64,000 bases of DNA from Nemertoderma westbladi. Lineage: Eukaryota > Animalia > Xenacoelomorpha. Below, in pieces: positions 1-46,424 of this stretch. The notes under the pieces were generated by a model. That model made no database searches and was not told the DNA's origin. It saw nothing but the letters and a program-made list of their open reading frames with translations. The first letter of the stretch is position 1, and each line of letters begins with the position of its first letter. Location: assembly GCA_032718475.1 (NCBI GenBank), contig JAUCBJ010008675.1:1-64000 (forward strand), in the 5' to 3' direction. The position numbers and the translations under genes are program-made.

Positions 1-1440
1 ACCACTCAGACGTTGATAGAATACACGGGGAGGCGGTCTACATTCGTAAATTTCGCCCACCCCTGAACAAACTCATACCTGGCGTCGCGTAGGTTTATAT
101 CCACATGTTTCAATTTTTATTGAGAGCATTTCAGTATAGCGGGCCACTTGTTTATTTAGTGATTTATTTTTCGCCATGCCCTATCGGATCTACTGTAGTT
201 TTGAGACGTTGTTTCACTTTTCAATTTTTTATTTTTTTCAACTTTGCAATATTTTGTCCCTTTAGTTATTATTCTTTACCATGATCTATCTGTGTAACTA
301 TATTATATTGTTAGAATGTTTGTACAATTCTGTATTTACAACTGTTCAATAGAACCCTGTTCAATAATAAAGGGTTATATCCGATGCATTTTATTTTTTA
401 TTTTTTATCTTCAGTTATTATTATTTTTTATTTATTTTTTACCATGGTGCCCCTTATTTTGTATTTTATCCACCCTATAACTGACCTACCATATTTTGTT
501 TGAGGTTTCTAATTTTTATGTACAACCATCCCTTTGTGCGCACTTTATCTGATCTACTGTACTCTTGTGTTTACTTTGGAGATGGTCAAGTTACTAAAAA
601 ATTTTCAATTTTTCATTGTCAGCTATTAAAATGTGGCGTGCCGGTAATTTAGTTTATTTTATGTTTAAAATAACCTATCGTAACTACTGTAGTTTAAGAT
701 TTTGCACAAGTTTAAATTAATTTATTCCAATACGCCGTGCCTTTATTTACTTTTAACGATGCCCTATTTGTTCTACTTATTTTATATGCCGTGTTCTTTT
801 ATTTAGTTCTACTATGCTATATGGTGCTCTATATTAACTTTTCCCGCCCCGTTATTTTAACTACTGTACTGTATATCTTTAGGTTCACCTGAATATTTTG
901 ATCTGTCAACTGTTAGTACGAATTGTACTGCTGTACTGCCTCTGCCTGACAGCCTACCGTACCATGGCCTACACGCTACACCGTACACCACGTAGCCCAG
1001 GCTGTCAGACTACAGAACCAGCATTACAAACCGGTAACGGTATCTGTGGTTTATTATTGTACAACATCTAACTGTATTATTTCAGTATTTATTTTATTGT
1101 AAGTCTATTGTTCGGTTTCTGAGTTTTACCAGGGCTTTGCAGTTTATTTCAGTATTTCGTTATTTATTTTAGTGTATTTCTGTAATTTCCTTACGTATTC
1201 AGCTATTCCATGTAGGCCTACTCTATTTGATTATTTAGTCTGTAATGCAGTAATGTGATTTCATATTGTTAATTATTTACTTGAGAATGGGCCTGGGAGC
1301 TCGAAATCGATCGTAACAAACTCTTTATTTTATAAGTTTATAGGGAATTTAGACCCCAACCTGCCTGCCTTAGAGGAGAGAGGATCCATAATGTATGTTT
1401 CAAATAATTCCCTGAAGTCGGCTTGTCGGTTTTTGAGGAA

Positions 1441-2100
1441 TTATAAATAAGGATGGAACGCGTAAACTCCCTCGTAAGAGCGTCCAGGGTAGTAGCGATG
1501 GCGGGACTCACAATGTAAATCCGCGTTCGCTTCCCAAGCTCGGATGTAGCGCAGGGTAATCATCTCATCTACGCTCTCTAAATCACGATTAAAGGGGCAA
1601 TTATAACTGGCATGTCCTTTAAGTTGACAGTGGTGGCATTGAGTCATAAATTGGGGGCAGACTGCAAAAATATGAGAGTTATTAAGTCTGCAATACGCAC
1701 AATATATCTCCATCATCGGTTGTTCGTGGAAATAGGAGCAGGGTACGTCTGAGTCCATGGGGGTGAAATGGTCTCTCGATGCGCATAATCGACAACGTTT
1801 TCGAGAAACATAGTTAGCGTGTCGATAATCGTATGCGGTGAGACATTGTGGACCTTGATACCACTCTCAGACGTAGTCGTTATCGCTGCTCCGGGGCGCT
1901 GTAGGCTGGATCGCTTCAGATTCTAAGCATATTGGTTTGTCTTCCAATTGCATAGCTGAGGTAGGTGCGACTGTCTCCGCAAGCGGACCCACTGTGAACT
2001 TCCACGACAGAATAACCTGTGGGTATTCGGGGTCTTTGTATAACAGATGAATGTAAGTTCTGTATACAAACGTCCTGAAAGAGAGCAAATCCCGCGCTGT
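1441..2100 (-). pseudogene. C-terminal part of the accessory protein with three zinc-knuckle-like motifs
   Basis: ORFs 1867-2088 and 1441-1758 are in the same frame, separated by one TGA (1867-1869). Manual read-through gives CRLCASRDH..., CAYCRLNNSHIFAVC and CHHCQLKGHASYNC (C-x2-C-x4-H-x4-C). Confidence 0.7.
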
Positions 2101-2171
2101 TTAGCTTCTCCGCAGCTGAGTCTCTTAGGCTGAGTTTGGTCAGAGCGCGGTCCTTGAACTGACTATCAACG

Positions 2172-4070
2172 TTACGGAACGGAGTCAGAAAGCGCCTTGA
2201 AATTCCATCCGTATTCTTGAAAGGCAAGATGTCCGATGGAGGTTCGTTGTACTTTGGTAATGCCGCTGGGTGTATTGGCATACATAGTGCGGAAGAAACC
2301 TCGGCCTTCTGCCCAGGGAGCAATCAGCTGAGTATCCACGAAAGGGTATGGAATGTTTTCCATATTCCGAAAGTCGTTTTGTAGATCTCCATAAACAGCC
2401 GAGCCGATTTTAAGGATTCTTTCGTTAAACAACATCTCGAGCACGGGTTGGGGTAACATCGATCCATCGATACCCATGGCCGGTTTGCGCTCGGTGTCGG
2501 CGACGTAATGCTGCGCGAGCTCGAATTGTCCATGTCGGAGTCTCTTTTGTGTCTCAGTAAGAGTTTCAAAAGAATAATCAATCACATCGGAACACGCTCG
2601 AGTAAATACGTGGGTAGAACCAGCGAGTCCTCGTACGTGTATCATCCGCGTAGTTCCCAGTTCTCCAACAGGAACGCTACCTTCGTTGTCGTAGGTGACA
2701 ACTCCATACATCTCGATAACATTAAGAGTCTCATTCCACTCTTTAGTGGCGTTTTCGAGAGTCATTCCCATAGGATGCCACAAGGTAGCGCATTCGCTAG
2801 CATTAGGTAGGTCTCTATACTTTAAATATTGTGTGGTATATGTTTCCACATCTCCATATCGTTGTATTCTTTCCTCCTCGAATAACACGTCAATATTCCA
2901 GTGTACTAAACGAGTTTTGATGAATCCATCAAGATTATACGGAGGTATTGTTTCTTTCTCTATTCTGGAAACATTGTATGGTTTTCGAAATGAGTTTATT
3001 TTAACCAACTGATCCAGATGTTTATGCAGTTGTTCGAGTTCGACAAGATCGAGAGGATTTATGAGTGGCAAAAACCTCAGACTATGTGTAGGATCTTCCG
3101 GTTTTACCATGTAATATTGTGTTAGGTTAACGTAATAAGGGTGATCTTTGATCCCATAAAACGAGTCCGGTAAAGGTCTAGCGCGTATATTTACATCGTG
3201 TACCATGCGACGGACAAGATCCGCTCTATTGTCCGGAGGTTCAACGAGTATACCATCGACACGAGCGGCTTCGATGGGTGGACGTTGCAACATGGGAGCG
3301 TCAGCGATAAGCTCTCTAGATCTTAGGTTGATATCAACCGGTTGAGGTTGTATCGTCGCAAAGAGTTTGTCTCCGAAATGGGGAACCATCGAGGGATGAA
3401 GGATGGTTTTAGAGTAGAGATCCGTCATAAGGATTTGAGCTTCGGGTTGAGCTAAAGCTGCTTCTTCTCTCTCATCTAGTTCTATATGTCTCTCCTCGAG
3501 CTGATTTTCCTCCGCTTGTTGTTGTAGACGCTCATCTAGGAACTCTTGTAAAGAGTAGGTTCGTCCACGTTTGATGTCCTCTTCGAGATTTTGTATTTCT
3601 CTATCGAACTGGGGTAAAGCTAATTCCTTCACCGCTTGGACTTGTTGTTGCAATTTACGTTTCTCCAAAAAATCGTAAGTTCCTTTTCCGATTTTCTGCC
3701 GAATAGCATCTAACGCGTTTCGTACGACGCTCTCTTCGACTTCCGTAACGGGTTGTATCGAGGTGAAGCCGGGACGGTTGTATGGGTTAAACGGCGATAT
3801 TAGATGACCGCGTCCCAATCCAGTTAGGTAGGGTTGGCGAATATCTAGTGAGCCTACTACCGGAGTACCACCGATCAACTGTTCGGGTAACACTAGATCT
3901 TTGAACAGTGAGTACAGTTCGGGAGGATCCGTGATACTATTAGGATCAAGAGTCTGAGGTCTAACCGAGGAATGAGGAGGTCTGACCGAGTATTCCGGAA
4001 CTCTGATCATTGGTTTGTTCAAGGATCGTTTGAGTCGAGCGACCGTAGGGGATACGTCGAACAGGTTTCG
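2172..4070 (-). pseudogene. Central part of the BEL accessory protein: coiled coil plus DEDDy (WRN/EXD2/RNase D-like) 3'-5' exonuclease domain
   Basis: Open frame from the 4070 breakpoint. Motifs VVTYDNEG (ExoI D-x-E), LPQPVLEMLFNERILKIGSAVYGD (ExoII), FVDTQLIA and SIGHLAFQEYG follow the order and spacing of the WRN-type exonuclease family. Confidence 0.7.
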
Positions 4071-4993
4071 CTCGAAACTCCCATAAGTATATCGTGTAAA
4101 ACTGTGTTTGTTATGTTTTTGCCCAGAGCCTAAGAACCGGCTTTTGGCACCTCCGTGTTTTCAGTTTTTAGTCTTACACTAGTAGGTTTAATTATAAGGG
4201 CATATATCCTTTAACTGACATACCGATCAAACTCATGGAATCACTGATCTGGGAATACACTGACTGCTGACACACGGCTTTTAACAACTGCTGAAACTGC
4301 TAAAATTACCTGCTCAATCGATACTGTATACTGCTATTTGTTGTCGGTTATTCATTATATTTGTTGATAAATTATTATATTGGAATAACGAGAAATAACC
4401 CCGAAAACCCAATATTCTTGATATACCGAAGGTAAGAGAGAAAGGTTACCAATAACGATTGTGACTTATGTTAAAGTGGTTTGAAGTGAATCTAATGTTA
4501 TTTGATAGACCCTACATGAGTCAGTCTGTGTTCCTTTTATATGTGACTAAAATCAGTGAAGATTGGCAGATTAGTGTGCAGTATTGTGCAGCATTGTGTA
4601 TGAGTGAGTCTGTTAAAGAAGCAATTCCTAAAGAATGCGCCATATATGTGAATTATAATTAAGCCATATCGTTGTGAGTAGTTTAAGTCATAACTCTGTT
4701 TATATAGATAAAGCGCCACGTCCTAAAGGAACTGTTAATATTCCCGAAGGTGAATAATATTGTCAGAGATTATATAATACTGTCAGTCGAATAATACATT
4801 AGGCTTACATAGCAATAAAATTAAACCGTCGAACCCAATCTCCCGGGAATATCCAGCGGGTGAATGATCGCGCACAGATTGGTTTCGACTAGTGTAGTGA
4901 ATCAAATACTTGTCATAGACTAAAAGCGATTTAATATCTAGAAGACATCTTAATTTGGTGGGTTAAACTGCCAAAAGTCTGAAAGCGCGAACA
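4071..4993 (+). repeat. Distal part of the BEL LTR (copy P)
   Basis: Aligns by eye to the reverse complement of about 25536-26365 (e.g. GCGCCACGTCCTAAAGGAACTGTTAATATT, CCAGCGGGTGAATGATCGCGCA); clear similarity stops at GCGCGAACA. Confidence 0.85.
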
Positions 4994-5294
4994 GAAGTCT
5001 CGTGGTAAGGGTGAACGGGAATAACGAGGTAATGCGTCTGCGACGTGTACGTATAATATATTATCATATATATAACGCAACGGAACAATAGCGTATAGCA
5101 GCTAACTAGGTAACGGAGTGCGGCTACGGTAGGATGTAGGTAACACAGTGCAGCTACGGTACCAGCAGCTGTGCAGTCGGCAGGTACCGGTCGTGTGCTG
5201 ACGTGCACACCCTGCACCGTGTACTGACACACTGTATGTCAGGCCGATCGTCAGGCCATGTGAGACAGACAGACGGTAGGTACTAACCGGCTGG

Positions 5295-6885
5295 TGTAAC
5301 TTATCTTTTTACCCAGTTTGTGTGCCGAAGTCGAGGCAGGGACCACTACTAACTAGGGTGACATCCATTCACCACAGTCATATAAAGTCAACACAAACAT
5401 CGGGTAAAGTAAACTGTAAGGCGTACATACGTAATATAACTAACTATGAACACACTAAATAGGAGTATACAACTATAATAACAATGGAGCAATGATAATC
5501 ATGTGTGCAAAAAAAACAGTTGGCCAACTTAGGTGTCGAACTCGGTATGGTTGGGAGCAGGTACACATGCGTTATCCCCCAAGCTAATCGGGGTGTTGGG
5601 TAACAGTTGGTGTGCGGGTGGTATGATAGGACATACTGGTTGCACCTCCATATTAGATCGAAAATGTTCACAAACAAAGCGAAGAAAGAGTTCAAAATAG
5701 TATGTAATACAGCTAAGTTTTTCAAACTAAAAGTCACTAATCGGTTTGTTTCGCCATTAGCGGCTGGAAGTCACCACGGATGATTATAATCTCATTATGT
5801 ATATATCGCAACTAACTAACTCGCAGAAGAAGTAGGGGGGGGGGGGGGGGGGGTTAATCGCAGCTAGTCAATGACGTCGGATGGGGCGAGCCATGCACAC
5901 AGGACGCATCAGGCGCGAGTTTTTATGGGAAACCGTAATATTCGGGTGGTTTGCGCACCCTGTGAGGGTGCTGTCGCTGGGAGTTGGGTGGGTCCAGGAT
6001 AACTGGGGCGGGTTGTGGGGCTGGTAGTGGCTCCACCGGTGGGTCGAACGCATCCACGGAGGGTAGTGCGCTGCCAGGGACCTGGCTGGGTAAGACTCGT
6101 TGAGGGACTCGAAATTGGAGTCGGACTAGAGGTCGACAACTGTAGTGGGTTGTGCGATTCGTGGTACGAGGAAGCAGTTGGCCTGTGGGACCCTGTAGGT
6201 GTATGCGCGGAGTTGTGATTGGAGCACCATGTGCTGTCGGTAGCGCTAACGATATACCGGGGGCTAGCGCCTAAGCGGGGGGTGTCAACATAGAGGTGTA
6301 CAAGGACATTCATGTTGAGGGCAGTGAACCCAGGTAGGACGTGGGGCAGTGAACCTTGGAGCATGCGCTGGCTGCATGGTTGGCAAGGCGACGGTAGTGT
6401 TGGGCAGAGATGATCGCAGTGTCGTCCAATGGGAGTTGGTCACCGGTAAATTGATCATGCTGGAAGAGGATCTCGCGTGCAGACAGCCCGGGATCATGGA
6501 GTCAGGCGTTAAGGTGGGCCACCGCAATGGCAAGGGATGTAGATGAAAAGGGTCCGCCGGAGGGACGGAGCTTAACTACCTTGGCTTGCAGTTCTCCGAT
6601 GGTGTGTTCGGCAATGGGATTTTTGTTAATATTCTTCCAGGCGCTGACTTCGAGGAAGAGGTGGTGGGACTTGAGGGTGGGGTCACCAACGAGGGCCTGA
6701 AAGCCTGGGCCGGGGTCTGTCCGGATGATGGCGAGGGGGCCGCTAAGGGGAAACATACCAAAGGCCAGGTTTATTACGGCGTCGCGCAGAGTGTCCTGTT
6801 GTTCGTCGGGAATTATGACGGCATTAGTGTAGGATGACACAGTTTTCGCGGATAAGAAGGATCCACTGTGAATAGCGGTGGAAGA
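5295..6885 (-). mobile_element. Ty3/Gypsy retrotransposon 3' fragment (degenerate integrase core and C-terminus, probable 3' UTR/LTR remnant)
   Basis: IIRTDPGPGFQAL...KNINKNPIAEHTIGELQ is a Gypsy-type integrase core, followed by frameshifted fragments 5868-6533. Possible LTR end ...GTTACA at 5295 (minus strand); boundaries approximate. Confidence 0.65.
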
Positions 6886-6987
6886 CATCAGCGGTAAACA
6901 ACTGGCCGACGACAGAGGGTGGATTGGGGGAGGACTGGATCGGGGTACCGAACAACAAGAGTCCCACAAGAAATGAAAACAAATAAG

Positions 6988-7076
6988 TTGGTGCCAGTTC
7001 CCAAGAAGGGCAACTCTATGGTTCTTTTTGGGGAATCTCATTGATCTCGATTGCTGCAAAACTATACAATAGAATG
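6988..7076 (+). mobile_element. Short non-LTR (RTE-like LINE) reverse transcriptase fragment
   Basis: Translates with one frameshift to LVPVPKKG...GISLISIAAKLYNRM, the LINE RT N-terminal motif. Confidence 0.6.
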
Positions 7077-7113
7077 TATACAATAGATATTACAATAGAT
7101 ATCTATACAATAG

Positions 7114-9127
7114 ATATTTTGGTCATGTTCTCCCTACGTATTCCTATCAACCTGATATTGATACTGACGTAAATACTCCCGAATGGTTAGGAGGACCTGA
7201 CTTTCTCTACAGAGAAGAAGAAGAATGGCCTCCCCATCTCACAACAGCAGAGATCAGACAGGCCAAGGGAGCGGAGAAAGTTAAACCCAAAACTCGAGCG
7301 AGTAAATCGAAGTTGTTTAAACCTGCGGTTGATCTATCGGTATTATTTACTTCCGGAGAGGATGCTTTGGATCAGAAACCCACCGCCACGACTAAAGAAG
7401 TCTTGGAAATCCGTGACAAGGATTGGAAATCTGGAATACCAGATATTTCGCAAGGACTCTCACCTCTCTTGCAGAGAGCGATACGTCACTACAGTTCCTG
7501 GAATCGGCTCTGTAAAGCTGTCACCTATTTGAAACGATGTTTTCATCATCGTTACTCCGGGACAAAGACCAATAGTGATGATGCTCCATCAACATCTGCA
7601 CGAGTCCATGTTGTTAAAGATCTTCCTAAATACAAGATATCCGACAGGTTTCTAAAGGAGAAGATCAGTTACCAGGAGCATGATGAAACCAACAAACAGA
7701 TGCTGAGACTCCTACAATGCTATGAGGATTCCGATAAGTATTTCCTGTTGTTAAGAAATCCACAGATGCGCTTAAGGGATCGCTTCTCTAGTACCATGAT
7801 AGATGGGTTAATACGTGTTGGAGGTCGGCTGACCAACGCCCCGTTATCCTTTGACACTAAGTTTCCCATACTCATTAGAAATCTTGATATACAAATCAAG
7901 ATGATTGTAGATGTTCATAGCAAACTGTACCATGCTGGTAGAGAACGAGTTCTGAGCGAAATTCGAACTCGCTACTATTTTTATAAACCCCGTAGGGCTC
8001 TGAACCAAGTTCTTAGGAACTGCATACCCTGTAGGAAAGCATTCAGTAGGCCTTTGACACAGCGAGAGGCAGAATTACCTAGGGAAAGAGTAAGCTTCTA
8101 TGAACCACCCTTTACTAATACCGGTGTGGATTTATTTGGCCCTATTGAAGTATATCGTGCCCGGACTATAGTCAAGAGATGGTGTGTCATCTTCGTTTGT
8201 ATGACTTGTAGAGCTATCCATCTCGATATGGTAAACGATCTATCCACCAACAGCTTCGTGTTGAGTTTACGACGACAGATCGCTCGCTTCGGAACCAGTA
8301 ACACGATGAGATCGGATAAGGGAACGAACTTCATTGGCGCCAACAACGAAATTCAAGCTTACGTAAAGGACTGGAACAAAAGACAGGTGGACGATCAGCT
8401 AAGGATAACAGCGTCTAGCTGGACCTTCAACGCCGCCGACGCCCCTTGGTGGGGAGGAAGTTGGGAGAGATTGATTAGGAGCGTGAAGACTGCGTTCCAC
8501 TTTATTGTGCCTTGTCGCGCTTATCTCACCGACGAACTATTGCGGACGTTAATGGAGGAAATCGCCGCCTATCTCAACGAAAGACCGCTTATGCCAGTCT
8601 CTTCAAATCCTGATTCCCTGGAAGCGCTAACACCCGCGCACTTTCTACTGAAGAAACCCGTAGCCATGCTCCCACGATCGGAGATCACAGACGGAGACGA
8701 GTACTGCCGTCGAACCTGGCAACTTATGCAGTTGCTATCCCGTCGTTTCGCTGACCATTTCGAGAAACATTACCTGCCCACTCTACAACTTCGAACTAAG
8801 TGGTTTGCGCAGCAAGAAAACGTCAGCGCTGGAGACATGGTGCTTATTGTGGACCCCGATCTCCCACGTAAGCGATGGCAAACAGGACGTATCATCGAGA
8901 CTTATATCTCGAGCGATGGTTTGGTGCGATCAGTAGAGCTCGTCGTCATGCGGCGGAACTTTAAGAAACCAGGGATAGTCTTTGAGACTCAACAGCTCAA
9001 TCGCCCAGTGGGTCGTTTATGTTTACTGGAAAGAGACAGAGAGCTCTCCGGAAACTATGGAAGGCAAGAAACTCTTCCCACGACCACTTCCCTAATCCAA
9101 CCGACATCTAGGGACTCCCCAACTTAA
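7114..9127 (+). pseudogene. 5'-truncated BEL pol of copy P (RNase H remnant and complete integrase)
   Basis: Protein is nearly identical to the C-terminus of the M polyprotein: HHCC zinc finger, GVDLFGP, RSDKGTNF, GGSWERL. About 400 bp of RNase H is deleted near 7152-7170. Confidence 0.9.
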
Positions 9128-9135
9128 TATCGTTC

Positions 9136-9151
9136 GGAGTGGGCGTGTGAC
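9136..9151 (+). promoter_or_regulatory. Polypurine-tract-like site plus TGTGAC immediately after the pol stop (copy P)
   Basis: GGAGTGGGCG|TGTGAC, 8 nt after the stop codon; same arrangement in M. Confidence 0.55.
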
Positions 9152-9672
9152 TCTATTATTTTATATTATTTTATTATTTTTATATTTATGTATGTATTAC
9201 TATGTAATTTTATTATAATCGTTTTATTTAATTTAGTAGAATATTATTTAGCGATTATTTTGTAGAATAGTGCAATATATTCGTGTTTATTACGTACGTA
9301 ATTACTTATATTATATTTAGTGAGACGGCGAAGAAATAATTATTTTTCTCTTTCCTTACTGTCCGTATTATATTATAAATACGTAACTACAGTAAGATGA
9401 AATGTCCGTACTTATTAAAGTACAATAAAGCCACTACTATATTTAAGTATTATTGGTAGGCAGAGTATTAGGAATGCAAAGTTCAGATCCTCGTGTCTCG
9501 GCTAAACCAAGCTCTGGGTAGACCTTGGAAACGACTTGCCTCTTCACACTGACATTGCTTCGTGCGATATTGCTCTCATACCGTATATTAAATAATACAT
9601 ATAGTAGCGTGATGTCCCTTTAACAGTAGCGTATAACGCAAAATAAATCTGTTAAACCCTTTGACCATCTGT

Positions 9673-9953
9673 AATTCTAGTCGATTAAGATATCGCGGCA
9701 CCCACCGATATACTTGAAAGACAAATTCTAGAATCAGTGGTTAACGTCCCCAGACAAGTTCTGGAATAAATCGGTGCCCATCTCAAATATTAATTAGTTA
9801 ATATTTACAAATCAAATAAGTCAAAATCTGTAAAATTCAGATCCTTCAACAATTCTAGTCAATTAAGATATCGTAGCATTTACCGATATTCTTAAAGAGA
9901 CAATTTTCTTAGAATTAAGGATCTTGTGTCCCTAGACATGTTCTAGAATCAAA
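9673..9953 (+). repeat. Imperfect direct repeat of about 100 bp (9673-9770 and 9851-9953) in the pol-accessory spacer
   Basis: AATTCTAGTCRATTAAGATATCG...GTTCTRGAAT occurs twice; mirrored in M at about 14235-14500. Confidence 0.7.
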
Positions 9954-10783
9954 ATATGTCCATTTAATTATCAAATAATAAAATTTCAGGGAATAAATTT
10001 AAATTCATGTCTTTTAATGAATTTAATAAATTGCCATTTTACGCAATTTATAACAGTTCCCAAAATTCCATTAATTAATAGATCAAGGGAGCGGAGATTT
10101 ATATTATTATGCGTATGCGTGTACGAAAGTCTCCCAAACATAGTTAATAGCCGATAAAATTCATAAAGTCATGTATAAAACAGAACATTGACTATTAAAG
10201 AATACTATTAAATAACATCCCAGATCTGTATGCATTGGAATCACCCTAATTCTACCGCTAGCTTTGCATAATGTCACCATAGCAACAACCACGCTAGAAT
10301 TAGAATTGAGTTAAAAGAACAATAGAAAGCTTGTCCCATTGAATAGCATAGGGAATAAATAGCGCACTACTAGTATCCAAGGATACATAATAATACAGTG
10401 ACATTCTGGAAGGCATTGACTAACGGACAAATGGCCCGAATGTGTGTAAGTTGTGACCAGTTGTGTGTGTGGTATTTGTGAGTTTTAGGTTAGGTGAATG
10501 TTACTGCTAAGGTGTGTTTACAGTAGCTAGTCGCAATCGTAAAAGTAACCTAACTCTCCAAGGAAAACCTGAAGTACATCTAAGCCTTTGGGACGGACAG
10601 TCGAGTGACTTGTGCCGGTTGTCGTTGTCGTTGTGCGGCTACGTCGTTGGCGAAAGTACAGCGGCGACGACACATCGGCGCTGAGGATCTCGTACTGTCC
10701 GGGGGTTAATTGGAGTAGGCAGCGACGCTCGCTAGCCTAAATATAAACTCCTTATAATATGGATAAACTCATATATAGCAGAT

Positions 10784-12130
10784 ATGACGGAGTTGATAGA
10801 AGATGGTCTTGGTATCGGGGAGCGATATACTCTACTTTTACAAGCGTTTGTTGATAGCTTAATACGCGGCGACGTTAGTCCAACTGCTGCGGAGGACGAT
10901 GGTCGTTATATCGAACCGACAATGTCCCAAGTGCAGCTCTCGCGAGAGTTGGACTATAGAAAATTCGCTGCTCGATATACGCAGCGTAATGGTACGTATA
11001 TGGGCTTCTTAACTACTGGTCATCCTATCGATTTACACGATACGGACAATGTCGACACCAAAAGGGAAATGGTACGATTGAAATATCCTACCCAGCGGAG
11101 GCGGAACGATAAACCGAGAATGGAACACGAGAATTCTATTCGAAACAGACTCGAAAGAGAAGACGTTGAGGAGCCGGATAAACGCAGCGACTTCAACGAT
11201 TATCTGGAATTCCTGATAGAAACATATCTCAATATTACCAGTCAACAAAATCTAGAAACTCGATATCCTCAAGGTATACATCATGACCGCATGGTAGAAC
11301 TCAAACGGCTCGATTCCCCTATGATGTATCTTACCGCCGATCGACCGCTACCTGTTGTACCGAATAGCTTCGAACGGATGGAGGAATATTGTAAGCTGGA
11401 GAAAGATCACTCGCGTTTCCCCTACAAGACGTACGTTTTTGGGTATTATTACGGTAAATGCCCTAGACCCAACTAATAAACGGAAAGACATAAACATCCA
11501 CGGAGACCGAAACTTGTTGACGTATCACCTATGCTCACTCGGCTCGAACGATCCTGGAGTAAACCTACGATCAGAGTCCCGGAATACTCGGTCAAACCTC
11601 CTCATTCCTTAGTTGGACCTCAGACCTGCGATCCTGGTGGTGTCGCGGATCCTCGCGGACTGTATTCACTGTTCAAAGATCTAGTGCTACCCTAACAATT
11701 AATCGGTAACACTCCGACAGTGATTTCTAGCTAGCCGCCCATCTTACCCAGCCGGATTGTGACGCGGACACCTAATATCACTATCCAACCGTATGGTCGT
11801 CCCCGTTTAACGCGATACAACCCCTCATCAAGGTGAAGGAGAGCTTTGTACGAAACGAGTTAAACGCTATTCTATAGAGATCAAAAGAGAAACCTGCGTT
11901 TGTTCAGATAAACGTAAGTTATAACAGTAAGTCCAGTCGATAAACGAATTGGCCTTATCTCAATTCGATTAGGAAATCCAGAATCTCTAAGAAGTTATCG
12001 AACTTGGACGATCCTATTCTCTGCGAGAGTTTTTGGATGAACGTATCCAGCTACGAGCGGAGGAAAATCAGCTCGAGGAGAAGCATATCGAAACGGCAGA
12101 TACCTCGACCACAATCCTACACCTTCTGAT
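10784..12130 (+). pseudogene. Accessory gene of copy P (N-terminal part; degenerate after 11476, 3' part deleted)
   Basis: 230-aa ORF. Beyond TAA-TAA (CAG-CAA in M) the frame reads ...HPRRPKLVDVSPMLTRLERSWSKPTIRVPEYSVKPPHS, homologous to the start of the 2172-4022 ORF. Confidence 0.8.
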
Positions 12131-12285
12131 GCAATCATATTGCACCCTTCACCCAGGAGTTATGGCCCTCCTAGTAAAGTGGCTCCCCCAAAGAGAAAAG
12201 GACTCTTGCTAGCCTCAAAAAACTGCGTAAACGCCGTCCGCGCAAGAAAGACTAACTGTTTAGAGTATCTTTATATTTTAGAAAC

Positions 12286-12692
12286 TGTGATTTGTTATAT
12301 TTTATAGACTGAAAATCCCATTTTCTGGGAGCGGTGTAAAAGCTTTTGCTGAATTGTCCGGTTATTTTTCCTTATTTTTCCCGAAAAATACTCTGTAGTT
12401 GGTTTACCAGGCATAAAAAGGCCGTGTCCTTGCTGTACTGGTGTTTTAGCGGACATAAAAGCTATTTCTTCTGTATTTGTACTTTAGAGGACATAATCCG
12501 TAATTCCGTGACGTAAAAGCTCGATACTCTTGAAAACAGTGTCGCTACCATGACGACGGCTAGCAGCTGATATTGCCACGTCGACGTTTCTTTGTTTCTT
12601 TGTTCTCTCGTTGTTCAGGTTGACCAATCAGAGCGTTTGTTGTCTCTGTGTTGGAGGTATATACAGAAACTCAGTAGTTCAGTAGCGCAACG
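12286..12692 (+). repeat. Proximal (U3-like) part of the BEL LTR (copy P) with CCAAT, TATA-like and Inr-like motifs
   Basis: Aligns to the reverse complement of about 26370-26755. GACCAATCAG at about 12622, GTATATAC at about 12657, TCAGT at 12671 and 12679. Confidence 0.8.
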
Positions 12693-13413
12693 TCTCCGCG
12701 GATGTTTATGTCTTTCCGTTTGCTGATTGGGTCTAGGACATTCGTCGCAGTAGTACCAAAGACGCACGTCCTGCAAGGGAAACGCGGGTGATCGTTCTCC
12801 AGTTTTACAATATTCCTCCATCTGTTCGAAGCTATCTGGGACGACAGGTAGCGGTCGATCGGCGGTAAGATACATCATAGTGAAATAGAGTAGTTTGAGT
12901 TCTATCATAGGATCATGATGTATACCTTGGGGATATCGAGTTTTGAGATTTTGTTGACTGGCAATATTGAGATATGTCTCTCTCAGGAATTCCAGATAAT
13001 CGTTGAAGTCGCTGCGTTTATCTGGCTCTTCAACGTCTTCCCTTTCGAGTTTGTTTCGAATAGTGTTCTCGTGTTCTATTCTCGGTTTATCGTTCCGACT
13101 CCGCTGGGTATGATATGTAAATAAAACCATTTCCCTTTCGGTGTCTACATCGTCCGTATCGTGTAAATCGATAGGATGGCCAGTAGTTAAGAAGTCCATA
13201 TACGTACCATTACGATGCGTATAGCGAGCGGTGAACTCTATAATCCAATTCACGCGTAAGTTGCTCCTGGGACATTGGCGGTTCGATATAACGACCATCA
13301 TCCTCCGTAGTAGTTGGACCAGCGTCGCCGCGTATCAAGCTATCGACAAACGCTTGTAAAGGTAGAGTATATCGCTCCCTGATGCCAAGATCATCTTCTA
13401 TCAACTCAGTCAT
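12691..13413 (-). pseudogene. N-terminal part of the accessory gene of M (one frameshift near 13238)
   Basis: ORFs 13210-13413 and 12615-13301 together match the 230-aa ORF of P. Homology ends at 12691, where LTR sequence begins. Confidence 0.85.
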
Positions 13414-15019
13414 ATCTGCTATGAGTTTATCAATATTATAATGAGTTTATATATTAGGCTAGCGGGCGTCGCTGCCTACCCTTCTTTTGCCCCCGGACAG
13501 TGCAAGATCCTCAGCGCCGATGTACCGTCGTCGCTGTGCTTTCGCCAACGATGTAGCTACACAACGACAACGATAACTGGCACAAGTCACTCCACTGTCC
13601 GTCCCAAAGGCTTAGATGTACTTCAGGTTCTTTATGGAGAGTTAGGGCTACTTTCACAATTGCGACTCGCTACTGTAAACACACCTTAGTAGTATCATTC
13701 ACCTACAAACGCACAAATTCAACACAACTGCCATAAACTACACACATTCGGGCCATTTGTCCGTTAGTCAGTACCTTCCAGAATGTCACTGTATTTATTA
13801 TGTATCCTTGGATACTAGCAGTGCGCTATTTTTTCACTATGCTATTCAATGGGGCAAGCTTTCTATTGTTCTTTTAACTCACTTCTAATTCTAGCGTGGT
13901 TGTTGCCATGGTGACATTATGGAAAGCTAGCGGTAGAATTAGGGTAATTCTCATGCATACAGATCTGGGATGCTATTTAATAGTAATTCTTTAATTGTCA
14001 ATATCCTCTCTATATATGATTTTATGAATTTTATCGGCTATTGACTATATATTGGAGATTCTCGCACACAAATACACTTAATAGAGTGAATCTCCGCTCC
14101 CATGATCTATTAATTAATGGAATTTTGGGAATGTTATAAATTGTATAAAATTACAATTTATTTAATTCATTGAAATATATGAATTTAAATTTATTCCCGT
14201 AAATTTTATTATTTAATATTAAAATAGACACAATTTTATTCCAGAACGTGTCTGGGGACTGGGATCCTTGATTCTAGGAATTTTGTCCTTTTAAGAGTAT
14301 CGGTAAGTGCTACGATATCTTAATCGACTAGAATTTTAAAGGATCTGATATTTGACAGATTTGGTAAATATTAATAATTAATATTTAGGATGGGCACCAG
14401 TTTATTCCAGAACTTGTCTGGGGACGTTAACCACTGATTCTAGAATTTTGTCTTTCAAGTATATCGGTGGGTGCCACGATATCTTAATCGACTAGAATTG
14501 CAGATGGTCAAAGGGTTTAACAGATTTATTTTGCGTTATACGCTACTGTTAAAGGGACATCACGCTACTATATGTATTATTTAATATACGGTATGAGAGC
14601 AATATCGCACGAAGCAATGTCAGTGTGAAGAGGCAAGTCGTTTCCAAGGTCTACCCAGAGCTTGGTTTAGCCGAGACACGAGGATCTGAACTTTGCATTC
14701 CTAATACTCTGCCTACCAATAATACTTGAATATAGTAGTGGCTTTATTGTACTTTAATAAGTACGGACATTTCATCTTACTGTAATTACGTATTCGTAAT
14801 GTAATACGGGCAGTAAGGAAAGAGAAAAAGAATTATTTCTCGCCGTCACACTAAATATATGATATAAGTAATTACATAATAATCGCGAACATATTGCACT
14901 AATCTACTAAATAATCGCTAAAATAACATGCTACTAAATAAAATTAAATAAAACGATTATAATAAAATTACATAATAATACATACATAAATATAAAATAA
15001 TAAGAATATAAAATAATAT

Positions 15020-15036
15020 GGTCACACACCCACTCC
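15020..15036 (-). promoter_or_regulatory. Polypurine-tract-like site plus TGTGACC after the pol stop (element M)
   Basis: Minus strand reads GGAGTGGGTG|TGTGACC just after the TAG at 15045. Confidence 0.55.
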
Positions 15037-15044
15037 ATATGCTA

Positions 15045-18000
15045 CTAAGCTGGGGAGTCCCTAGATGTTTGTTGGATTAGGGAGGTGGTCGTGGGAAGAG
15101 TATCTTGCCTCCCATAGTTTCCGGAGAGTTCTCTGTCTCTTTCCAGTAAACATAAGCGACCAACTGGGCGATTGAGCTGCTGTGTCTCGAAGACAATTCC
15201 CGGTTTCTTGAAGTTACGTCGCATGACGACGAGTTCTACCGATCGCACCAAACCGTCATCCGAGATGTGAGTCTCGATGATACGACCTGTCTGCCACCGC
15301 TTACGTGGAAGATCTACATCCACAATAAGAACCATGTCTCCAGCGCTGACGTTTTCTTGCTGCGCAAACCACTTAGTTCGAAGTTGTAGCGTGGGCAGAT
15401 AATGTTTTTCGAAATGGTCAGCGAAACGACGGGATAACAACTGCATGAGTTGCCAAGTTTGCCGACAGTATTCGTCTCCGTCTGTGATTTCCGATTGTGG
15501 TAACATGGCTACAGGTTTCTTCAGTAGGAAGTGCGCGGGTGTTAGCGCTTCCAGGGAATCGGGACTCGATGAGACTGGCATAAGCGGTCTCTCGTTGAGA
15601 TAGGCGGCGATTTCCTCCATTAACGTCCGCAAAAGTTCGTCTGTGAGATACGCGCGGCAAGGCACTATAAAGTGAAATGCTGTCTTCACACTTCTTATTA
15701 ATCTCTCCCAACTTCCTCCCCACCAAGGGGCGTCAGCAGCGTTGAAGGTCCAGCTAGACGCTGTTACTCGTAGCTGATCGTCCACCTGTCTTTGGTTCCA
15801 ATCTTTGACGTAAGCTTTGATTTCATTGTTGGCACCAATGAAGTTAGTTCCCTTATCAGATCTCATCGTGTTACTAGTGCCAAAGCGAGCGATCGTCGTC
15901 GTAAGCTTAATAGAAAGCTGTTGGTAGATAAATCGTTCACCATATCGACATGGATAGCTCTACAAGTCATACAAACAAAGATGACACACCATCTCTTGAC
16001 TATAGTCCTAGCACGATATACTTCAATAGGGCCAAATAAATTCACACCGGTATTAGTAAAGGGTGGTTCATAGAAGCTTACTCGTTCCCTAGGTAATTCT
16101 GCCTCTCGCTGTGTTAAAGGCCTACTGAATGCTTTCCTACAGGGTATGCAGTTCCTAAGAACTTGGTTCAGAGCTCTACGGGGTTTATAAAAATAATAGC
16201 GAGTTCGAATTTCGCTAATAACTCGTTCCCTACCAGCATGATAAAGTTTGCTGTGAACGTCTACAATCATCTTGACTTGTATTTCAAGATTTCTAATGAG
16301 TATGGGAAACTTAGTGTCAAAGGATAGTGGAGCATTCGTTAATCTTCCTCCAACAAGTATCAACCCATCTATCATTGTGCTAGAGAAACGATCCCTTAAG
16401 CGCATCCGTGGATTTCTCAACAACAGGAAATACTTATCGGAATCTTCATAGCATTGCAGGAGTCTCAGCATCTGCTTGTTGGTTTCTTCATGCTCCTGAT
16501 AACTGATCTTCTCCTTCAGAAACCTGTCGGGTATCTTATATTTGGGAAGATCTTTAATAACATGGACCTGCACTGATGTTATTGGAGCGGTATCACCTTT
16601 GGCCTTCATCCCGGAGTAGTAATGGTGAAAACATCTCTTTAAATATGTAACGGCCTTACAGAGCCGATTCCAGGAACTGTAGTGATGTATCGCTCTCTGC
16701 AGAAGAGGTGAGAGTCCTTGCGAGACGTCTGGTATTCCAGATTTCCAATCCTTATCACGGATTTCCACAACAAGTTTATTTGTGGCTGTGGATTTCTGAT
16801 CCAAAGCGTCGTCTCCGGAAGTATGTAGTACAGACAGATCTACCATAGGTTTGAATAACTTCGATTTACTCGCCCGAGTTTTAGGTTTGACTTTCTCCGC
16901 TCCCTTGGCCTGTCTAATCTCTGTGGTAGTAAGATGAGGAGGCCATTCTTCTTCTTCTTTGTAGAGGAAGTCTGGTCCACCTAGCCAGTCTGGAGTATCT
17001 ACCAGTTCTTGTGGAGTTGCTCCCCTGGAGGCGATGTCTGCTGGATTAATCGTTCCGGGGCAATGTCTCCATTGATCCATCGTTGTGCGACTGAGTATAA
17101 TAGCTACTCTGTTGGTAACGAAGACGCTGAACTGACAGACTTCATTGGTTATATACTCCAACACGAGTAAAGCGTCGGTCCAATAGACAGTTTTCTCCAG
17201 TGGATAGTCGATCTGTTCTGTTACATTCCGGCCGATGGCTGTAGCGTATAGAGCCGCCTTTAACTCCGCTCGAGGAACTTTCAACTTGTTGTTTATCAAT
17301 GCCTTAGAAGTAACCAAGGCAACTTTGATTCCGTCCGGAGTTTCCACCCTTAGGTAGGCTACTATACCTATTCCCATATCGCTGGCGTCTCCAAACACAT
17401 GGAGTTGATAGGAATACGTAGGGAGAACATGACCAAAATATGAACGGGAAATTATAAAGTTCTCGATGGCTGGTAGAGAATCTTCCCATTTCATCCACTT
17501 CTTTAATAATTCTCCCTTAAGTGGATCGTCCCATGAGTGGTTTTCAAGCCACATTTGTTGTACTAAACTCCGAGCAATCAATATAACTGGGCTAATAAAT
17601 CCCAATGGATCGAAATAAGTGCTCAGGATACTTAAACAAATCCGTTTAGTCCGAACTGGATTATCTCGCTGTTTTAGTTGGAAAAACAGGATATCTCTTT
17701 CTGTGTCCCATTTCAAACCAAGGGTCTTAGTTTCTGGGAGATCATCTTTTATTAGATCCAGATCTTTCGCTCCTCGATCTTCTATCGGGATCGACTCCAG
17801 AAACTTACGGGAGTTGCTGGTGAATTTAATTAATCGAAATCCACCTCTTTTTAAGCACTCTACCGTTCCTTTAGCGACATCAATGGCTTCTTCGACTGAT
17901 GGAAGGGACTTTAGATTGTCGTCCATGTATATATCCTTCTTGATGTTGTCAATCACCTCTTTAGAGAAGGCATCTCGGTTGTCATCCGCAGTGGTGCGCA

Positions 18001-21000
18001 CCACGGAACAGGCGTTTGAAGGGCTTGAGATTATCCCAAAAGCCTGGATGGTCATCCAGTACTCCACCGGTTTCTGGTTGAGGTCTCCTTCAGGCCACCA
18101 CAGAAATCGTAGGCTGTCTCGATCCCTATCCAGCGCCTTGACTTGTAAGAACATGCCTTCTATATCTGAGGCGAAAGCAATGGAATATTGTCTTAATCTT
18201 AAAAGTATTCCCAACAAGGATTGGAGTAAGTTGGGTCCGGGTAACAATTCAGAATTAAGGGATTGGCCCATATAGAGGGCGGAGCCGTCAAACACCACTC
18301 GTACTTCATGGGGTTTACCGGGTTTGGGAACATAATGGTGAGTTAAATAATACGTTCTCTCAGTTATAGGTGTTTCTTCCGGTACTAGCTCCGCGTATCC
18401 CTTGCTAATAAATTTCTTCAACTGTGTTCGATACATTTCTTTAGCTGAAGAATTTGCCGTAAGGCGTCGATGTAGTTGAGCAATTCTTTTCTCCGCCAAG
18501 GGTCTGTTGTTCACGAACTTTGGTTCTCGCTTTCGGAAAGGTAGACCGATCTCATATCTACCTTGATCTTTAAGAAAACGTGTAGTTGTCTCTTGGATCT
18601 GCTTGGCTCTTTCTTCCTCTACCGATAGGGCCTTATCGTAGGAATTGGGCTCTACAGCCTCTTGAGTAAAGAATAGTACGGCATGTTCATCCCGAGTCTT
18701 GGCATTATATCGTTCAATGACGTCATTAAGTTCGTCGTTATAGTCGTCTCGTTCTGATGGAAGAAGGAGCTGACATAAGTTCACTTGGTTTTGCCAAGTC
18801 TCGTTTTCCTTAAGGAGATCGATGGTATTCTCCTCATCGAAAAGTTGGTGGACATCGTCGTTATCTGAGGAGTATGGTGTTCCCTCAGTTAGATCATCTA
18901 ACTCACTGCCCTCGACTTCCCATTCTCTCACTTGACATACCTGGTCTTTCGGTAATCTTTCCATGAGAGTTCTACGGGAAGGGCCAGTAAAGTACCAACC
19001 CACTCTAGTTTTTCCCGCATAAGCTTGTAGTGGTTGCGGTTGAGCGGGCCGTTTCTCCAATGTCTCGAGCGCTTCATGCGCGTTTTGACCGATGAGTATT
19101 TGCACTCCAGGGTAATCGGTGTTGAATCTAGGTATTTCTAGCTGCTGGGTGAAATCGTCCTCATCCCAGTTATAAGGTTCCACTTGGGTGTTAGCGAAGT
19201 TCTTTATCGCCACCATTTTTACTGACCTTATACTATGTTCTCCTAGTTCATCCTGGGGGGTGGACAACGCACCTACAGAATAATCCACTATTACTGTAGA
19301 TTTCCAAACCTGCATAATTCCTGACATGCTTACCTTAGTTCGGAACTTGGGTTGTCCAGCAAAGATGTCTTCGGCTAGTTCTTTGTCGATGAATGTTCCT
19401 GTACTACCGGAGTCAAGGAGGGCGTTCACTACATAACTCCTTTTAGGTCCGTGGACCCTTACCTGTACTACAGGAAATTCTCGGATTCCTACATTGGAAG
19501 GTGGCGCTTTCCACGATGGTTGTCGATCAGAAGTAGTTAGGGTGAGGTCGCTGTCTGTGTCTTTTTCATACGTAAGTGCTCGATACACTGCGGTATTTAT
19601 CATGTAACAGGATTCACCTTCGTCGGAAAATTCATCTGTATAGAATCCTTCCACCTCAGAGCTTTGGTCAGTGTCGTTCACATCACTGAATTGGACATGT
19701 AGTTCGGAATCAGTTACCTGACTCGGACTATTTCGCTCGAATTCAGTGTGCAACAAGATATGATGTTTCGCACCGCACTTTGCACACCTTGTGTCGGAGT
19801 AACAGGTTCGCCGTTGGTGTCCTTGTCTGAGGCAATTATAACACAACTGCTTATCCCACATGACTTCCCGTCTCTCCGCTAATGATTTCTTCAGGAATTC
19901 ATCACACATATTCAAACGGTGAGTCCCGTCACATAGCGCACATTTCGGTTTGATGTTACTTACCTTATTTTGAATAACATTGTGCACACTCGTTCTTTCT
20001 TCGGGCTTTCTCACCTGAATTCTCTTGGGAGACGTAGGAGGAGTTTTTCTTACCTGTTCTCTCCTGTCATTGGTTCGAGACTTGAATTTACTTACCTGAT
20101 CTTTAGGCGTTTTATTGACATAATAAGATCTTTCAGTGTCTTTCCCGCTATCCTCTCCTTGAGAAGTCTGGCTTTCGCCGTCGTCTGTATAACACACTGG
20201 TGTTACCTTTCTCCTAGAGACGGGTTTCTCACTTACCTTGTTTTCCGGTGTCTTCTCTCTGGACTGCTTTATGAGCTGTAATTTCACTTCGCCATCCAAG
20301 AATGACATGAGATCAGCCATGGTAGGGTCTCGTTGTTGTTGTTCCATCATATATAACACTTTCTTGTCCCAGCGTGTACCTACTCCACCCTTCGGTAAAT
20401 TAGAAGCCACTGCTCTAATAACCATAGCACTCTGATACTCATGAGACTTACCTAGCCAATCTAATTGTCTGCAGATCTCCTGAATCTCATCGGAAAACTC
20501 TATAATCCCGCTGCTGATAAACTTTCGGGGCGCTACCAACTTTGCATACAAATACCCAGCTATGTTATTCCTATTACCATACCTGATGTTTAGTGTATCC
20601 CAAACTTGTCTTAATCCGTCTGGATGTCCAATAAACTTTAACGCCATTAACTTGGGAGATCCTTCCAAGCACTCGATGAGGAATCTAAGTTTCTCTCCAT
20701 TAGATAGCACAGAGTTCTGTATGTTATCTTTGTAATATTCATTAAAAGGTAACCATTTCATCTCATCTCCATTGAACTTGACTATCTCTCCCACGTTTAC
20801 CGCTTGGCGGGCTTTGGTTCTAGCCATTTGACGCGTAAAACTTTCTTGGGCCATCGTGTTATTTAATATCGAGTTATCGGTATATAAATTTCTCGGATTA
20901 TGATCAGGTCTATAGGGAATATCACTATCAACAGGTCTATAATTACCCTTAATAGGGTTTACTATAGGAGTTTCTACTTCGCTAGCAGTATAGATGCATG

Positions 21001-23089
21001 TAGGCTCCACACCTTGCGCATGAGATACTTCAGACCTAACGGGTTGACATATTGTTACAGAGGGTGGTGATATACCCTTTTGTAAATTTACTAATTTATC
21101 GCGTTCTAGCGCGATACTTTGCTGCACTTCTTGCAACTCTAACCTACTTTCCCTTACTGTGCCCTTGAATTGCTGAACGGTCTCCTGCATCTGCCCGAGC
21201 AGGAGATCCATCCCCCGTCGTCTCTCATCCACCCACTCGACCGCCAAAGCGGGAGCCGCCAACGTTGTAGCGGGCCGACGAGGGACAACGGGCGACAAAT
21301 CATTAATATTTCGCTCGGAGTCCAGGACATGAACATTTTCAAGGGTGGTTCTGTGGGGCACAGATAGCTTAGTGCTGTGCAGAGGGAATTTAGAGGTAGG
21401 TTCAGGGAGTACAGGTGTCTCTACCAACAAAGGGGTGGCTTCGGGAACAGGCCTAATTATTTCAGGCTCATCTACTATAGTAGGGAGTCTTTCTATTTTA
21501 ATTATTTGGTCTGTGGGTTCTGTACTACCTAAGTTTGTGTTATTTAGTTGCCTTCTAACAGCTGGAGGCAAATCAGGCAATTTCTGACGGTGGGATGTTC
21601 TTCTACGTCTGCTTAGACGAGATCTATTTCCTTTGCCTTCAGTATCGGTGGTATCGCCTTCCTCAGATGATGTATATCCCCGTCTTTTGGGAGTAGATCG
21701 ATTCATCATCTGCATATTACTAGCTGTTAACTGTTTATTTATGCAGTCTTGATTCTCCTGAATGTTTTCCAATTCTAATTGGGTGATTTCTTCAGCCGCT
21801 CTCCGTTCTGCTTCTGCCACTGCCTCTGCCACCTTTCTTTCCGCCTCTGCCGCTGCTACTGCCGCTTTTCTTTCTGCTTCTGCAGCTGCCACTGCTGCTG
21901 CCACTGCTGCTGCCTTTCTGTCTTCTATATGTTTTTTCTTCACTTGTTCTTCTTGGACTCTAGTGATGCGGAGTTGTTCATCAAATTTAGCTTGGTTCGC
22001 AGCTCTCATATCCACATCGATGGCGTCCAACACACGCTGGGTTCCTTCACTATTAGGGCTGAGTCCATCTAACCTTCTCCCCAACTCTTCATCTCCTAAA
22101 AAACGTTGATAGTCTGACAGATAGATGTCAATGGCATCCCTCTTATGCGGTTTCTCTGCCGTCGCTTCACTTTCCACTTGGGAAAAAGTAGCGTCTGTTG
22201 ATTCTCCATGGGTTGAGCGCTCCTCCAGCTGAGCTTTCCACTGAGCCGTTCCTTGAACCTGGAGACTCACCCGTTGAAACCAAGTCTTTACGGCAACTTG
22301 CAACGACGTGTCTTGTCTTCTTTTAGAAGCCTCCTCAAAGGCCGATAAGATGAGCCTGATTCGTAAAATTCTTTCTCTAACTTGATAAAGCAGCTGTACC
22401 TGCTCTTGAGGTCCTTGGGGTTGTTGAAACAATTGTTCTTTTAATCGCTCCATAGAGCTGAAGAATCCCTGTGCGTATCCGGCTGCGGACCTCTTCCACA
22501 CAGCTGGATCGATGGTTTCCTTGGTTACTCCCATCCTGTGTATATCTTCCCAGGCAGCTTCTGATAAATCAAACGGGAGTCTGGGTCCGGGGAAGTTCCA
22601 TTGCGACTCGACAATAGACTTCAGTTCTTCCCTTGTGTATCCCGCATAACTATCTTTAGTCGATCGCTTACTTCTCGCCCAATTGATCTGGTGTTCTTCC
22701 ACCGCAATCAATAACCTAGTGAGTACGGCTGCAGGAAGGATGAGAAGGGGATCCGAATAAACCGCATCCGTCATCTTTGCTCCGCGCTCGGGTGTCAGCT
22801 CTACAGTATCCTCACTACTGGAGCAGTCGGGCCATTGAGAAATAAGTTCTTGGCTCGCGGGTTGTTGTTGTTCCGCTGCTTCTTGGTCCCGCTTGACCTG
22901 AGCTCTAGTGCCTATGACAGACCTACGGTATTGGACCAGCCTAGGTTCTGATATTACTACTGGGGGAATGATCTTTCTTACAGTAGGAGGTGAGTTGAAC
23001 TTCGGTCTAACTCGTTCCACACTCCTGTCTGGGTCACATATGGTTGTATCTAGGAGACTGTCTGACAGGTTTTCCTTTGTGTCAGACAT
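15045..23089 (-). pseudogene. BEL/Pao Gag-Pol polyprotein (about 2680 aa when repaired), with a 1-nt frameshift in integrase
   Basis: Gag KFNGDEMKWLPF; knuckles CALCDGTHRLNMC, CYNCLRQGHQRRTC and CAKCGAKHHILLH; protease LLDSGS; RT YMDD; RNase H FGDASD; integrase HHCC and core. Comparison with P shows one base lost near 15893. Confidence 0.95.
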
Positions 23090-46330: not shown

Positions 46331-46424
46331 CAATAGTAACAGTAAAGTGAGTGATCAAAGTGTCGACTGTCATAGAGTAAGTTTAGATGTTCATGAACAT
46401 AGCAATGGAAATGTTGACGGAAAT

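Follow-up and report, generated by a model that had tools for sequence, protein, structure and literature searches.

Why LTR retrotransposons keep genes for DEDDy nucleases has been a standing question since 2017, when such genes were described as ORF3s in bdelloid rotifers, both in the Gypsy LTR elements Juno and Vesta and in elements of the Athena/Terminon type (PMC5408684; PMC6431247). A 64,000-nt stretch of Nemertoderma westbladi DNA (contig JAUCBJ010008675.1; the window) raises it again: what is the gene, here also called ORF3, that follows pol on the same strand of a retrotransposon copy (copy M), and what might it do for its carrier?

By its Pao-type gag and pol domains, the carrier is classed as a BEL/Pao LTR retrotransposon. 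Its gag-pol gene (15045–23089, minus strand) is a single frame with three gag knuckles followed by protease, RT, RNase H and then integrase, the BEL/Pao domain order, as read from Pfam and the translation. DUF1759 (E 2e-10), Peptidase_A17 (E 5e-36) and Integrase_H2C2 exceed the Pfam cut-offs in copy M, as does DUF5641 on the version of the pol end in a second copy (copy P), while the RT was identified through YMDD in the translation, without a Pfam RT match. The integrase of copy M carries one frameshift near 15870–15960. The coding span of the element is about 13 kb; no LTR pair with a target duplication around all genes was found within the 64-kb window, and copy M appears to be truncated at both ends within it.

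ORF3 comprises at least 1130 codons from an ATG at 13413, 1.63 kb past the pol stop, in agreement with the roughly 1.6 kb of the first-pass annotation. The minus-strand ORF pieces that it had placed after pol in the same orientation are seen at 13210–13446, 12615–13334, 2172–4160 and 1441–1866, and every motif that it quoted is present in the translation. The first 243 codons in copy M (12684–13413, minus strand) contain one frameshift near 13216–13238 and match no known family; neither does the middle region (2781–4109, minus strand), an open frame with a charged helical stretch near 3450–3650. These are followed by a DEDDy-like exonuclease domain (2197–2780, minus strand), a deletion private to copy M (2196/2197, minus strand), 67 codons at 1995–2196 (minus strand) and a 3′ part with three Cys/His motifs (1441–1994, minus strand). 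Copy M also has a small frameshift near 1994 and a stop at 1867–1869 that other copies lack, and coverage by family contigs stops near 1443.

An 8.6-kb nested insertion (4110–12683) splits ORF3 and holds a repeat bounded by TG...CA, a fragment resembling an integrase, and copy P (7169–12092, plus strand). Copy P consists of a pol end, a spacer and the ORF3 5′ part, with its ATG at 10784 and decay after 11476; it is 88.6% alike to copy M over 7169–11507 and 75% against the 3480–4073 part. The earlier claim that copy P has the same pol-spacer-ORF3 layout and reads through the junction stood, but the insertion ends at about 4110 and not at 4073, so that the read-through in copy P includes a short deletion specific to that copy. 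Contigs of other copies diverge from the window after position 4109; run X1 has 15 of these, X3 has 10 and X5 has 1. With pol, spacer and ORF3 in line in two diverged copies, M and P, the view that ORF3 belongs to the family as cargo after pol is supported.

The position after pol is that of env in BEL/Pao elements such as roo, Tas and Cer. A survey of the group gives sizes of 4.2–10 kb and few elements with env (PMC3118150), and ORF3 resembles the env of these few in that it, too, follows pol as a third gene with the same orientation. Unlike them, it showed no membrane segment in the four ORF3 pieces tested (top 19-residue hydropathy 1.07; the deleted piece lies outside these), which rules out an env glycoprotein. 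A host gene is ruled out as well, since ORF3 occurs many times, lacks introns and lies collinear with pol in both copy M and copy P.

ORF3 is repeated in the public sequencing runs; run X1 yielded 10168 contig records, and summed depth over ORF3 is 64,687–414,143 against about 100 in the flank, a contrast that is not a copy number. It is also under purifying selection. The comparison between copies called for by the first-pass annotation gives a dN/dS of about 0.3, not near 1: 0.30 for copy M against copy P (0.19–0.48, 226 codons), and 0.29 in a second estimate (0.19–0.43, 184 codons) that dropped 7 codons with stops in copy P. At 0.09, pol is more constrained. Third positions account for 8/13 of the variant places among contigs in the exonuclease stretch, 8/10 in the middle and 7/9 on the knuckle side.

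ORF3 likely encodes an RNase D/WRN-type DEDDy domain, as judged from its sequence. In the ESM Atlas, PF01612 was assigned to 29 of 30 matches (best 0.93), with shared-feature counts of 157–164, below the 170 typical of family members. The NCBIfam RNase D model TIGR01388 matches the ExoII stretch (E 5.8e-4), and the exonuclease stretch ranks first of 1164 window chunks in three of four profiles that we built from 56 bacterial DEDDy domains; a short-RNase D/PolA profile did not pick it up. Its hhalign score is 36, against at most 16.4 across 30 shuffles. The blocks at and behind ExoII both rank first in the window, and D2387 aligns with the invariant ExoII Asp within a matching helix-strand block. 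ExoII as originally placed is thus strongly upheld by the RNase D profile, block ranks and alignments; a conserved D2336 and helices follow. As in the RNase D/WRN/EXD2/Mut-7 (Nibbler)/Rrp6 group of PF01612, this stretch is followed by a P-x-D-T-Q-like block and accompanied by a candidate D-x-E of ExoI.

For ExoI, the earlier placement at D2690/E2684 is moderately supported. D2690 ranks 2 of 127,696 for a block of ExoI plus strands 2–3, and 14 of 45 reference fragments set their Asp on it, the commonest position; in the model (pLDDT <50) the D-x-E sits on a strand that a helix precedes, with fitting strand 2–3 spacing. It ranks 175 with RNase D blocks alone, and a helix-plus-ExoI block places it 198 of 127,858. 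MAFFT and one hhalign run map ExoI to a stretch without Asp, and an N-fragment HMM did not find the ExoI site. The D2690/E2684 register needs a 43-residue insertion, with 101 residues between ExoI and ExoII against 57–63 in 45 references. An alternative at D2498/E2492 was rejected: it lies just 37 residues ahead of ExoII and falls below D2690 in three ranking tests, although one short block ranks it higher (18 vs 110).

The domain departs from the PF01612 group in these approximately 43 extra residues, in scores below every curated cut-off and in an ExoIII that is unreadable in copy M. Single-sequence AlphaFold gave no confident fold (pLDDT 30). A second model, from an alignment of the C-terminal half, reached pLDDT 55 but was built with DEDDy rows, which makes its DEDD matches circular; fold searches with it gave at best E 0.04 and Z 3.6, the weak and likewise circular matches being headed by WRN, EXD2, NrnC and RNase D. 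As the DEDDy rows bias this model, the lack of some other family from its fold matches does not count against that family. These fold results, and the confinement of every significant alignment to the 45-residue ExoII stretch, would fit a chance match in a protein of another fold. We consider this very unlikely, as language-model features, a curated HMM and our own profiles concur and motif order and spacing fit up to the break.

ExoIII had been proposed at codons 2103–2089, which are in the knuckle frame. Over 1995–2196, when read in the frame of ORF 1916–2323, third positions take up 19 of the 27 variant places and 23 of the 29 changes are silent, compared with 7/27 and 7/29 in the knuckle frame. 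Selection follows the frame of ORF 1916–2323, and the proposed codons are thus not part of the ORF3 protein. The 67 codons in the selected frame contain neither Y-x3-D nor H-x4-D. Before the break, 63 residues remain after ExoII, and the reference ExoII-to-ExoIII spacing is 65–69; the deletion coincides with the expected ExoIII position, and the true site would fall in the piece lost from copy M. In all four public runs, contig ends are loose on one or both sides of 2196/2197, and no rejoining joint was found. The deletion also rules out the stop of the 632-codon ORF at 2172 as the true end.

The zinc knuckles of the first-pass annotation are present as three Cys/His motifs (1738–1794, 1657–1701 and 1597–1638); zf-CCHC_3 scores E 5.6e-4 on the 3′ part, below the Pfam cut-off, and no HRDC or helicase domain was seen in ORF3. 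A large protein with knuckles and a charged helical region might instead be an RNA-binding adaptor built on a dead or weak DEDDy fold, as in EXD1, Egalitarian and Maelstrom, that exports, localises or shields element RNA. ExoIII is unseen in copy M, and the register given by MAFFT and one hhalign run, which offers no Asp for ExoI, does without an insertion, both in favour of the adaptor; the retained ExoII Asp and the predicted strand and spacing around D-x-E make it improbable.

Apart from zf-CCHC_3, ORF3 has no Pfam family, and no homologue was found among PDB sequences, in word-indexed protein searches (the first 500 residues against proteins of 347–1106 aa; longer proteins; the knuckle part), by phmmer with 407 residues against 1.84 billion representatives, or in metagenome and viral contigs queried with ORF3 and with the integrase. 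Phage tblastn gave two chance matches only, PHROGs weak rows only (one exonuclease family at E 0.15), and the ESM Atlas no usable match to the middle region. These negatives indicate that the collections searched lack close relatives; they do not demonstrate absence. No BEL/Pao exonuclease was described in the literature searched, which was mainly open-access papers rather than Repbase or GyDB records.

The premise that such a gene has no precedent was too strong, as DEDDy ORF3s of LTR retrotransposons are known (PMC5408684). Like those of Juno, Vesta and Athena, ORF3 is a stand-alone, RNase D-like gene after pol, in the env position, with putative activity in both cases, and some bdelloid ORF3s have a Cys-His-Cys motif comparable to the knuckles. 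It differs in its BEL/Pao rather than Ty3/gypsy or Athena carrier, its length (1130 codons or more, including a long N-terminal half of no known family), its three C-terminal Cys/His motifs, its D-E-D as opposed to DEED and its purifying selection between copies, as against the near-neutral variation reported for sequenced bdelloid ORF3s (PMC5408684). New here are the carrier, the size, the three knuckles and the selection. Its presence in a third retroelement group, in a high-copy family where purifying selection is clear, speaks for a gene that benefits the element rather than a passenger.

How it helps is a matter of graded conjecture. Our preferred reading, held tentatively and at somewhat less than evens, is a third gene kept by selection whose product, probably an RNase D/WRN-type 3′–5′ exonuclease with RNA-binding knuckles, would trim RNA 3′ ends against host small-RNA silencing. 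ORF3 would be expressed separately from a promoter in the spacer, its product would act as a metal-dependent 3′–5′ exonuclease, and trimming would blunt silencing of the element. Its own start, a TATAAA at 13446–13451 that we take to be a TATA-like box ahead of the ATG, and the lack of fusion to Gag/Pol suggest action in trans in the cell, not beside RT. Together with the nearest host folds, Mut-7/Nibbler and EXD1, which act on small RNAs, this makes small RNAs the proposed target; mature piRNAs, whose ends carry methyl groups and are bound by protein, would be a poor substrate, which counts against it. A fuller version is possible but rather doubtful: independent capture of a DEDDy domain by a BEL/Pao lineage, giving a 1150-residue knuckle protein with its own promoter that would act as a suppressor enzyme, shortening or destroying host small RNAs, with high copy number as the result. 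If small RNAs are the target, ORF3 would be an enzymatic, transposon-encoded silencing suppressor in an animal. The system is tractable, since natural copies are plentiful and the domain lends itself to assay in isolation.

An active exonuclease could instead serve replication of the element, carried into the particle by its nucleocapsid-like knuckles to trim primer, RNA or cDNA 3′ ends or to proofread. The enzymes heading the circular fold matches favour this, and 3′-processing, alongside Mut-7-like roles, was already proposed for bdelloid DEDDy ORF3s (PMC5408684); it is nevertheless unlikely, as ORF3 is separate from and less constrained than pol, and most BEL/Pao elements replicate without such a gene (PMC3118150). 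The analogy drawn earlier with a nidoviral exonuclease that permits large genomes is unsupported, given a gene apart from pol and a coding span of about 13 kb. Nidoviral nsp14 ExoN is a DEDDh enzyme with zinc motifs within the replicase polyprotein; ORF3 would likewise combine a DEDD nuclease and zinc motifs within a selfish genome that has an RNA phase, but is separate from pol and has no sequence or fold evidence of kinship.

Separating the pol stop from the ORF3 ATG is a non-coding spacer of 1.63 kb (13414–15044, minus strand), with 8.7% mismatch between copies M and P. Directly after the pol stop, both copies have a purine-rich tract, then TGT, then AT-rich DNA, and the spacer contains what is presumably an X-box-like palindrome (13902–13915). 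These features, the promoter-like motifs and the lack of an LTR after ORF3, where family coverage ends, could mean that a long LTR begins with the spacer, or that the spacer marks a tandem-unit boundary, with ORF3 in or after an LTR or before the next gag. This layout is quite unlikely, as nothing matching the spacer lies upstream of gag (23123–25535) or anywhere else in the window except in copy P. The spacer also contains internal repeats of 135 nt.

The main BEL/Pao copy in the window (copy M) holds a minus-strand gag-pol frame of 2419 codons at 15863-23122, whose translation contains YMDD and matches DUF1759, Peptidase_A17 and Integrase_H2C2 above the Pfam cut-offs; the end of its integrase is read in a shifted frame, down to 15045. 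After pol and a spacer follows ORF3, a real accessory gene on the same strand, of which 1130 codons are kept in pieces of 243, 637, 67 and 183. Self-comparison of the window reveals an inverted partial copy (copy P) at 7169-12092, 88.6% alike to M from the end of pol across the 1.63 kb spacer into ORF3 and, beyond that, 75% alike to 4073-3480 of M. Because P is continuous with both parts, ORF3 is split in the window by a nested insertion of 8.6 kb. Contigs of other family copies from public sequencing runs diverge from the window behind 4109 (15 in run X1, 10 in X3 and 1 in X5), and their letters past this point, compared by eye, resemble the M side; the two halves therefore belong to a single gene, and P carries a short private deletion at this point. 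The first-pass annotation placed ORF3 correctly in P, which reads through the junction apart from this deletion.

Frameshifts (in the integrase, near 13230 and near 1994), the insertion, a deletion and a stop confined to this copy (1867-1869) leave the window copy dead. Cover by other copies stops near 1443, where most leave the window sequence, and the frame of the zinc knuckles is still open for about 36 codons (1330-1440, minus strand) beyond the stop at 1441-1443, which therefore may not be the true end of ORF3. The repeat that splits the gene (4110-4993 and 12335-12683) is bounded by TG...CA and carries a short imperfect duplication; in a further copy, at 25536-26707, the two ends meet end-to-start, like the junction of a tandem or a circle. 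Inside the insertion, decayed minus-strand frames at 5923-7089, without a Pfam match, presumably resemble the end of a Gypsy-type integrase.

Searches by Pfam, PDB sequences and plain protein sequence found no homologue of ORF3. Three sensitive tests agree on the DEDDy-like fold signal proposed in the first-pass annotation. In the ESM Atlas, 29 of 30 matches belonged to PF01612 clusters (up to 0.93), sharing about as many features as a distant relative would, and an NCBIfam RNase D match spans 46 residues (E 5.8e-4) but scores far under the cut-off of that family. From 60 bacterial PF01612 stretches, 56 with D-x-E and Y-A-x-x-D were kept to build four profiles, three of which placed the ORF3 stretch first among 1164 six-frame window chunks (E 3.5e-5, 0.0025 and 0.14); the fourth, the short-RNase D/PolA profile, did not match it. 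In hhalign the stretch scored 36, whereas no shuffled sequence scored above 16.4, and ExoII (D2387, residues being named by window position) with its adjoining block ranked first in the window. The domain is very probably DEDDy-like. The candidate ExoI (D2690/E2684) is less firm than ExoII: taken with the two next strands, its rank among 127,696 was 2 when all references were used, 5 for WRN-like blocks and 175 for RNase D blocks, and 14 of 45 reference fragments align onto the D2690 site. This assignment requires about 43 extra residues, and global alignments favour another register, one without Asp. Structure prediction reached a pLDDT of 30 from the single sequence and 55 with DEDDy C-half rows, which bias the model and make its weak fold matches circular.

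Among contigs aligned on 1975-2250, loose ends occur at 2196 and 2197, on both sides in X1, X3 and X4 and on one side in X5, and no joint rejoining them was found among the aligned contigs of these four runs. Copy M has lost a segment here, probably of about 100 bases or more given the lengths of the loose ends. The break lies 63 residues past the ExoII Asp, and the ExoIII Tyr of 45 references lies 65-69 residues past it. Counting all 29 variant rows at 27 places within 1975-2250 and reading them in the frame of the ORF at 1916-2323, 19 of the 27 fall on third positions (p 9e-5) and 23 of the 29 changes are silent; the knuckle frame puts 19 of the 27 on second positions. We therefore reject the ExoIII proposed earlier, a run from a stop codon to an Asp codon that one substitution would turn into Y-x3-D and which falls about 95 residues after ExoII in the knuckle frame and not in the selected one. 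Neither Y-x3-D nor H-x4-D occurs in the 66-67 codons of the true frame retained in copy M; as the expected site coincides with the deletion, this says nothing against ExoIII in the family.

Between copies, dN/dS is 0.09 over 650 codons of pol. In ORF3 it is 0.30 over 226 codons of the first part (bootstrap 0.19-0.48) and 0.29 over 184 codons of the middle, where codons with gaps and 7 that hold a stop in P were dropped; the ORF3 ratios, a check suggested at first pass, are not near 1. The gene is present as many diverged contigs in four public runs from four studies (10168, 3936, 198 and 52 records). Of 40 variants listed, beside 902 further unlisted ones, 32 lie within the gene (stop codon left out), and among those listed third positions account for 8/13 in the exonuclease stretch (p 0.035), 8/10 in the middle and 7/9 on the knuckle side. 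The low dN/dS and this third-position excess indicate that ORF3 was selected as a protein over its whole length while the family spread.

The 3′ part of the gene encodes three Cys/His motifs (1597-1794), only the last with canonical knuckle spacing; the Pfam match to this region is below cut-off. An env identity is ruled out, as the ORF3 pieces examined contain no membrane segment. The spacer (13414-15044; 9130-10783 in P) differs between M and P by 8.7%, less than dS in pol (0.45) or ORF3 (0.29), suggesting either constraint or a recent exchange. In both copies TATAAA lies about 35 bases upstream of the ATG, and a palindrome at 13902-13915 and 10273-10286, with one mismatch in P, precedes the ORF3 start by about 490 bases; the motif has four matches on two strands (at most one mismatch; three sites), against 0.18 expected. 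We take this palindrome to be an RFX X-box-like motif, which could signal expression in ciliated cells or in cells that form sperm. The kept spacer, TATAAA and palindrome together suggest that ORF3 has a promoter of its own; the same features would also fit a rival layout in which the spacer forms the first part of an LTR. At two stringencies, the window yielded no LTR pair. The spacer opens with a purine-rich tract and TGT, resembling an LTR start, and the stretch of 2.4 kb or more that lies upstream of gag (23123-25535), with 120-nt and 290-nt tandem repeats, has no LTR match in the window.

Our tentative reading, which we put at somewhat below even chances, is that ORF3 would be expressed separately from gag-pol and its protein, held on RNA by the knuckles, would act as an RNA 3′-exonuclease that weakens small-RNA silencing. 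Two rivals, trimming inside the element's own replication cycle and a dead RNA-binding adaptor, seem less likely, each to the same degree. That a DEDDy gene can stand where env is usual is a known idea, described from Gypsy and Athena elements of bdelloid rotifers (PMC5408684) and restated in two further papers (PMC6431247, PMC6338049). BEL/Pao elements are given a length of 4.2-10 kb, a few of them carrying env, in PMC3118150, whose main text lacks the word exonuclease. Literature listings yielded no exonuclease-bearing BEL/Pao element; what is new about the putative ORF3 exonuclease is its BEL/Pao carrier, its size, its knuckles and the selection on it.

The window also contains animal DNA: a minus-strand C2H2 zinc-finger exon at 35375-37561, presumably MECOM/PRDM16-like, and, on the plus strand, a rhodopsin-family 7TM receptor frame at 28923-29903 and an intron-less TB2/DP1/HVA22 (REEP-like) frame at 41515-42180 that may be a retrocopy. 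A 30-nt tandem repeat of about nine units occupies 46396-46665.
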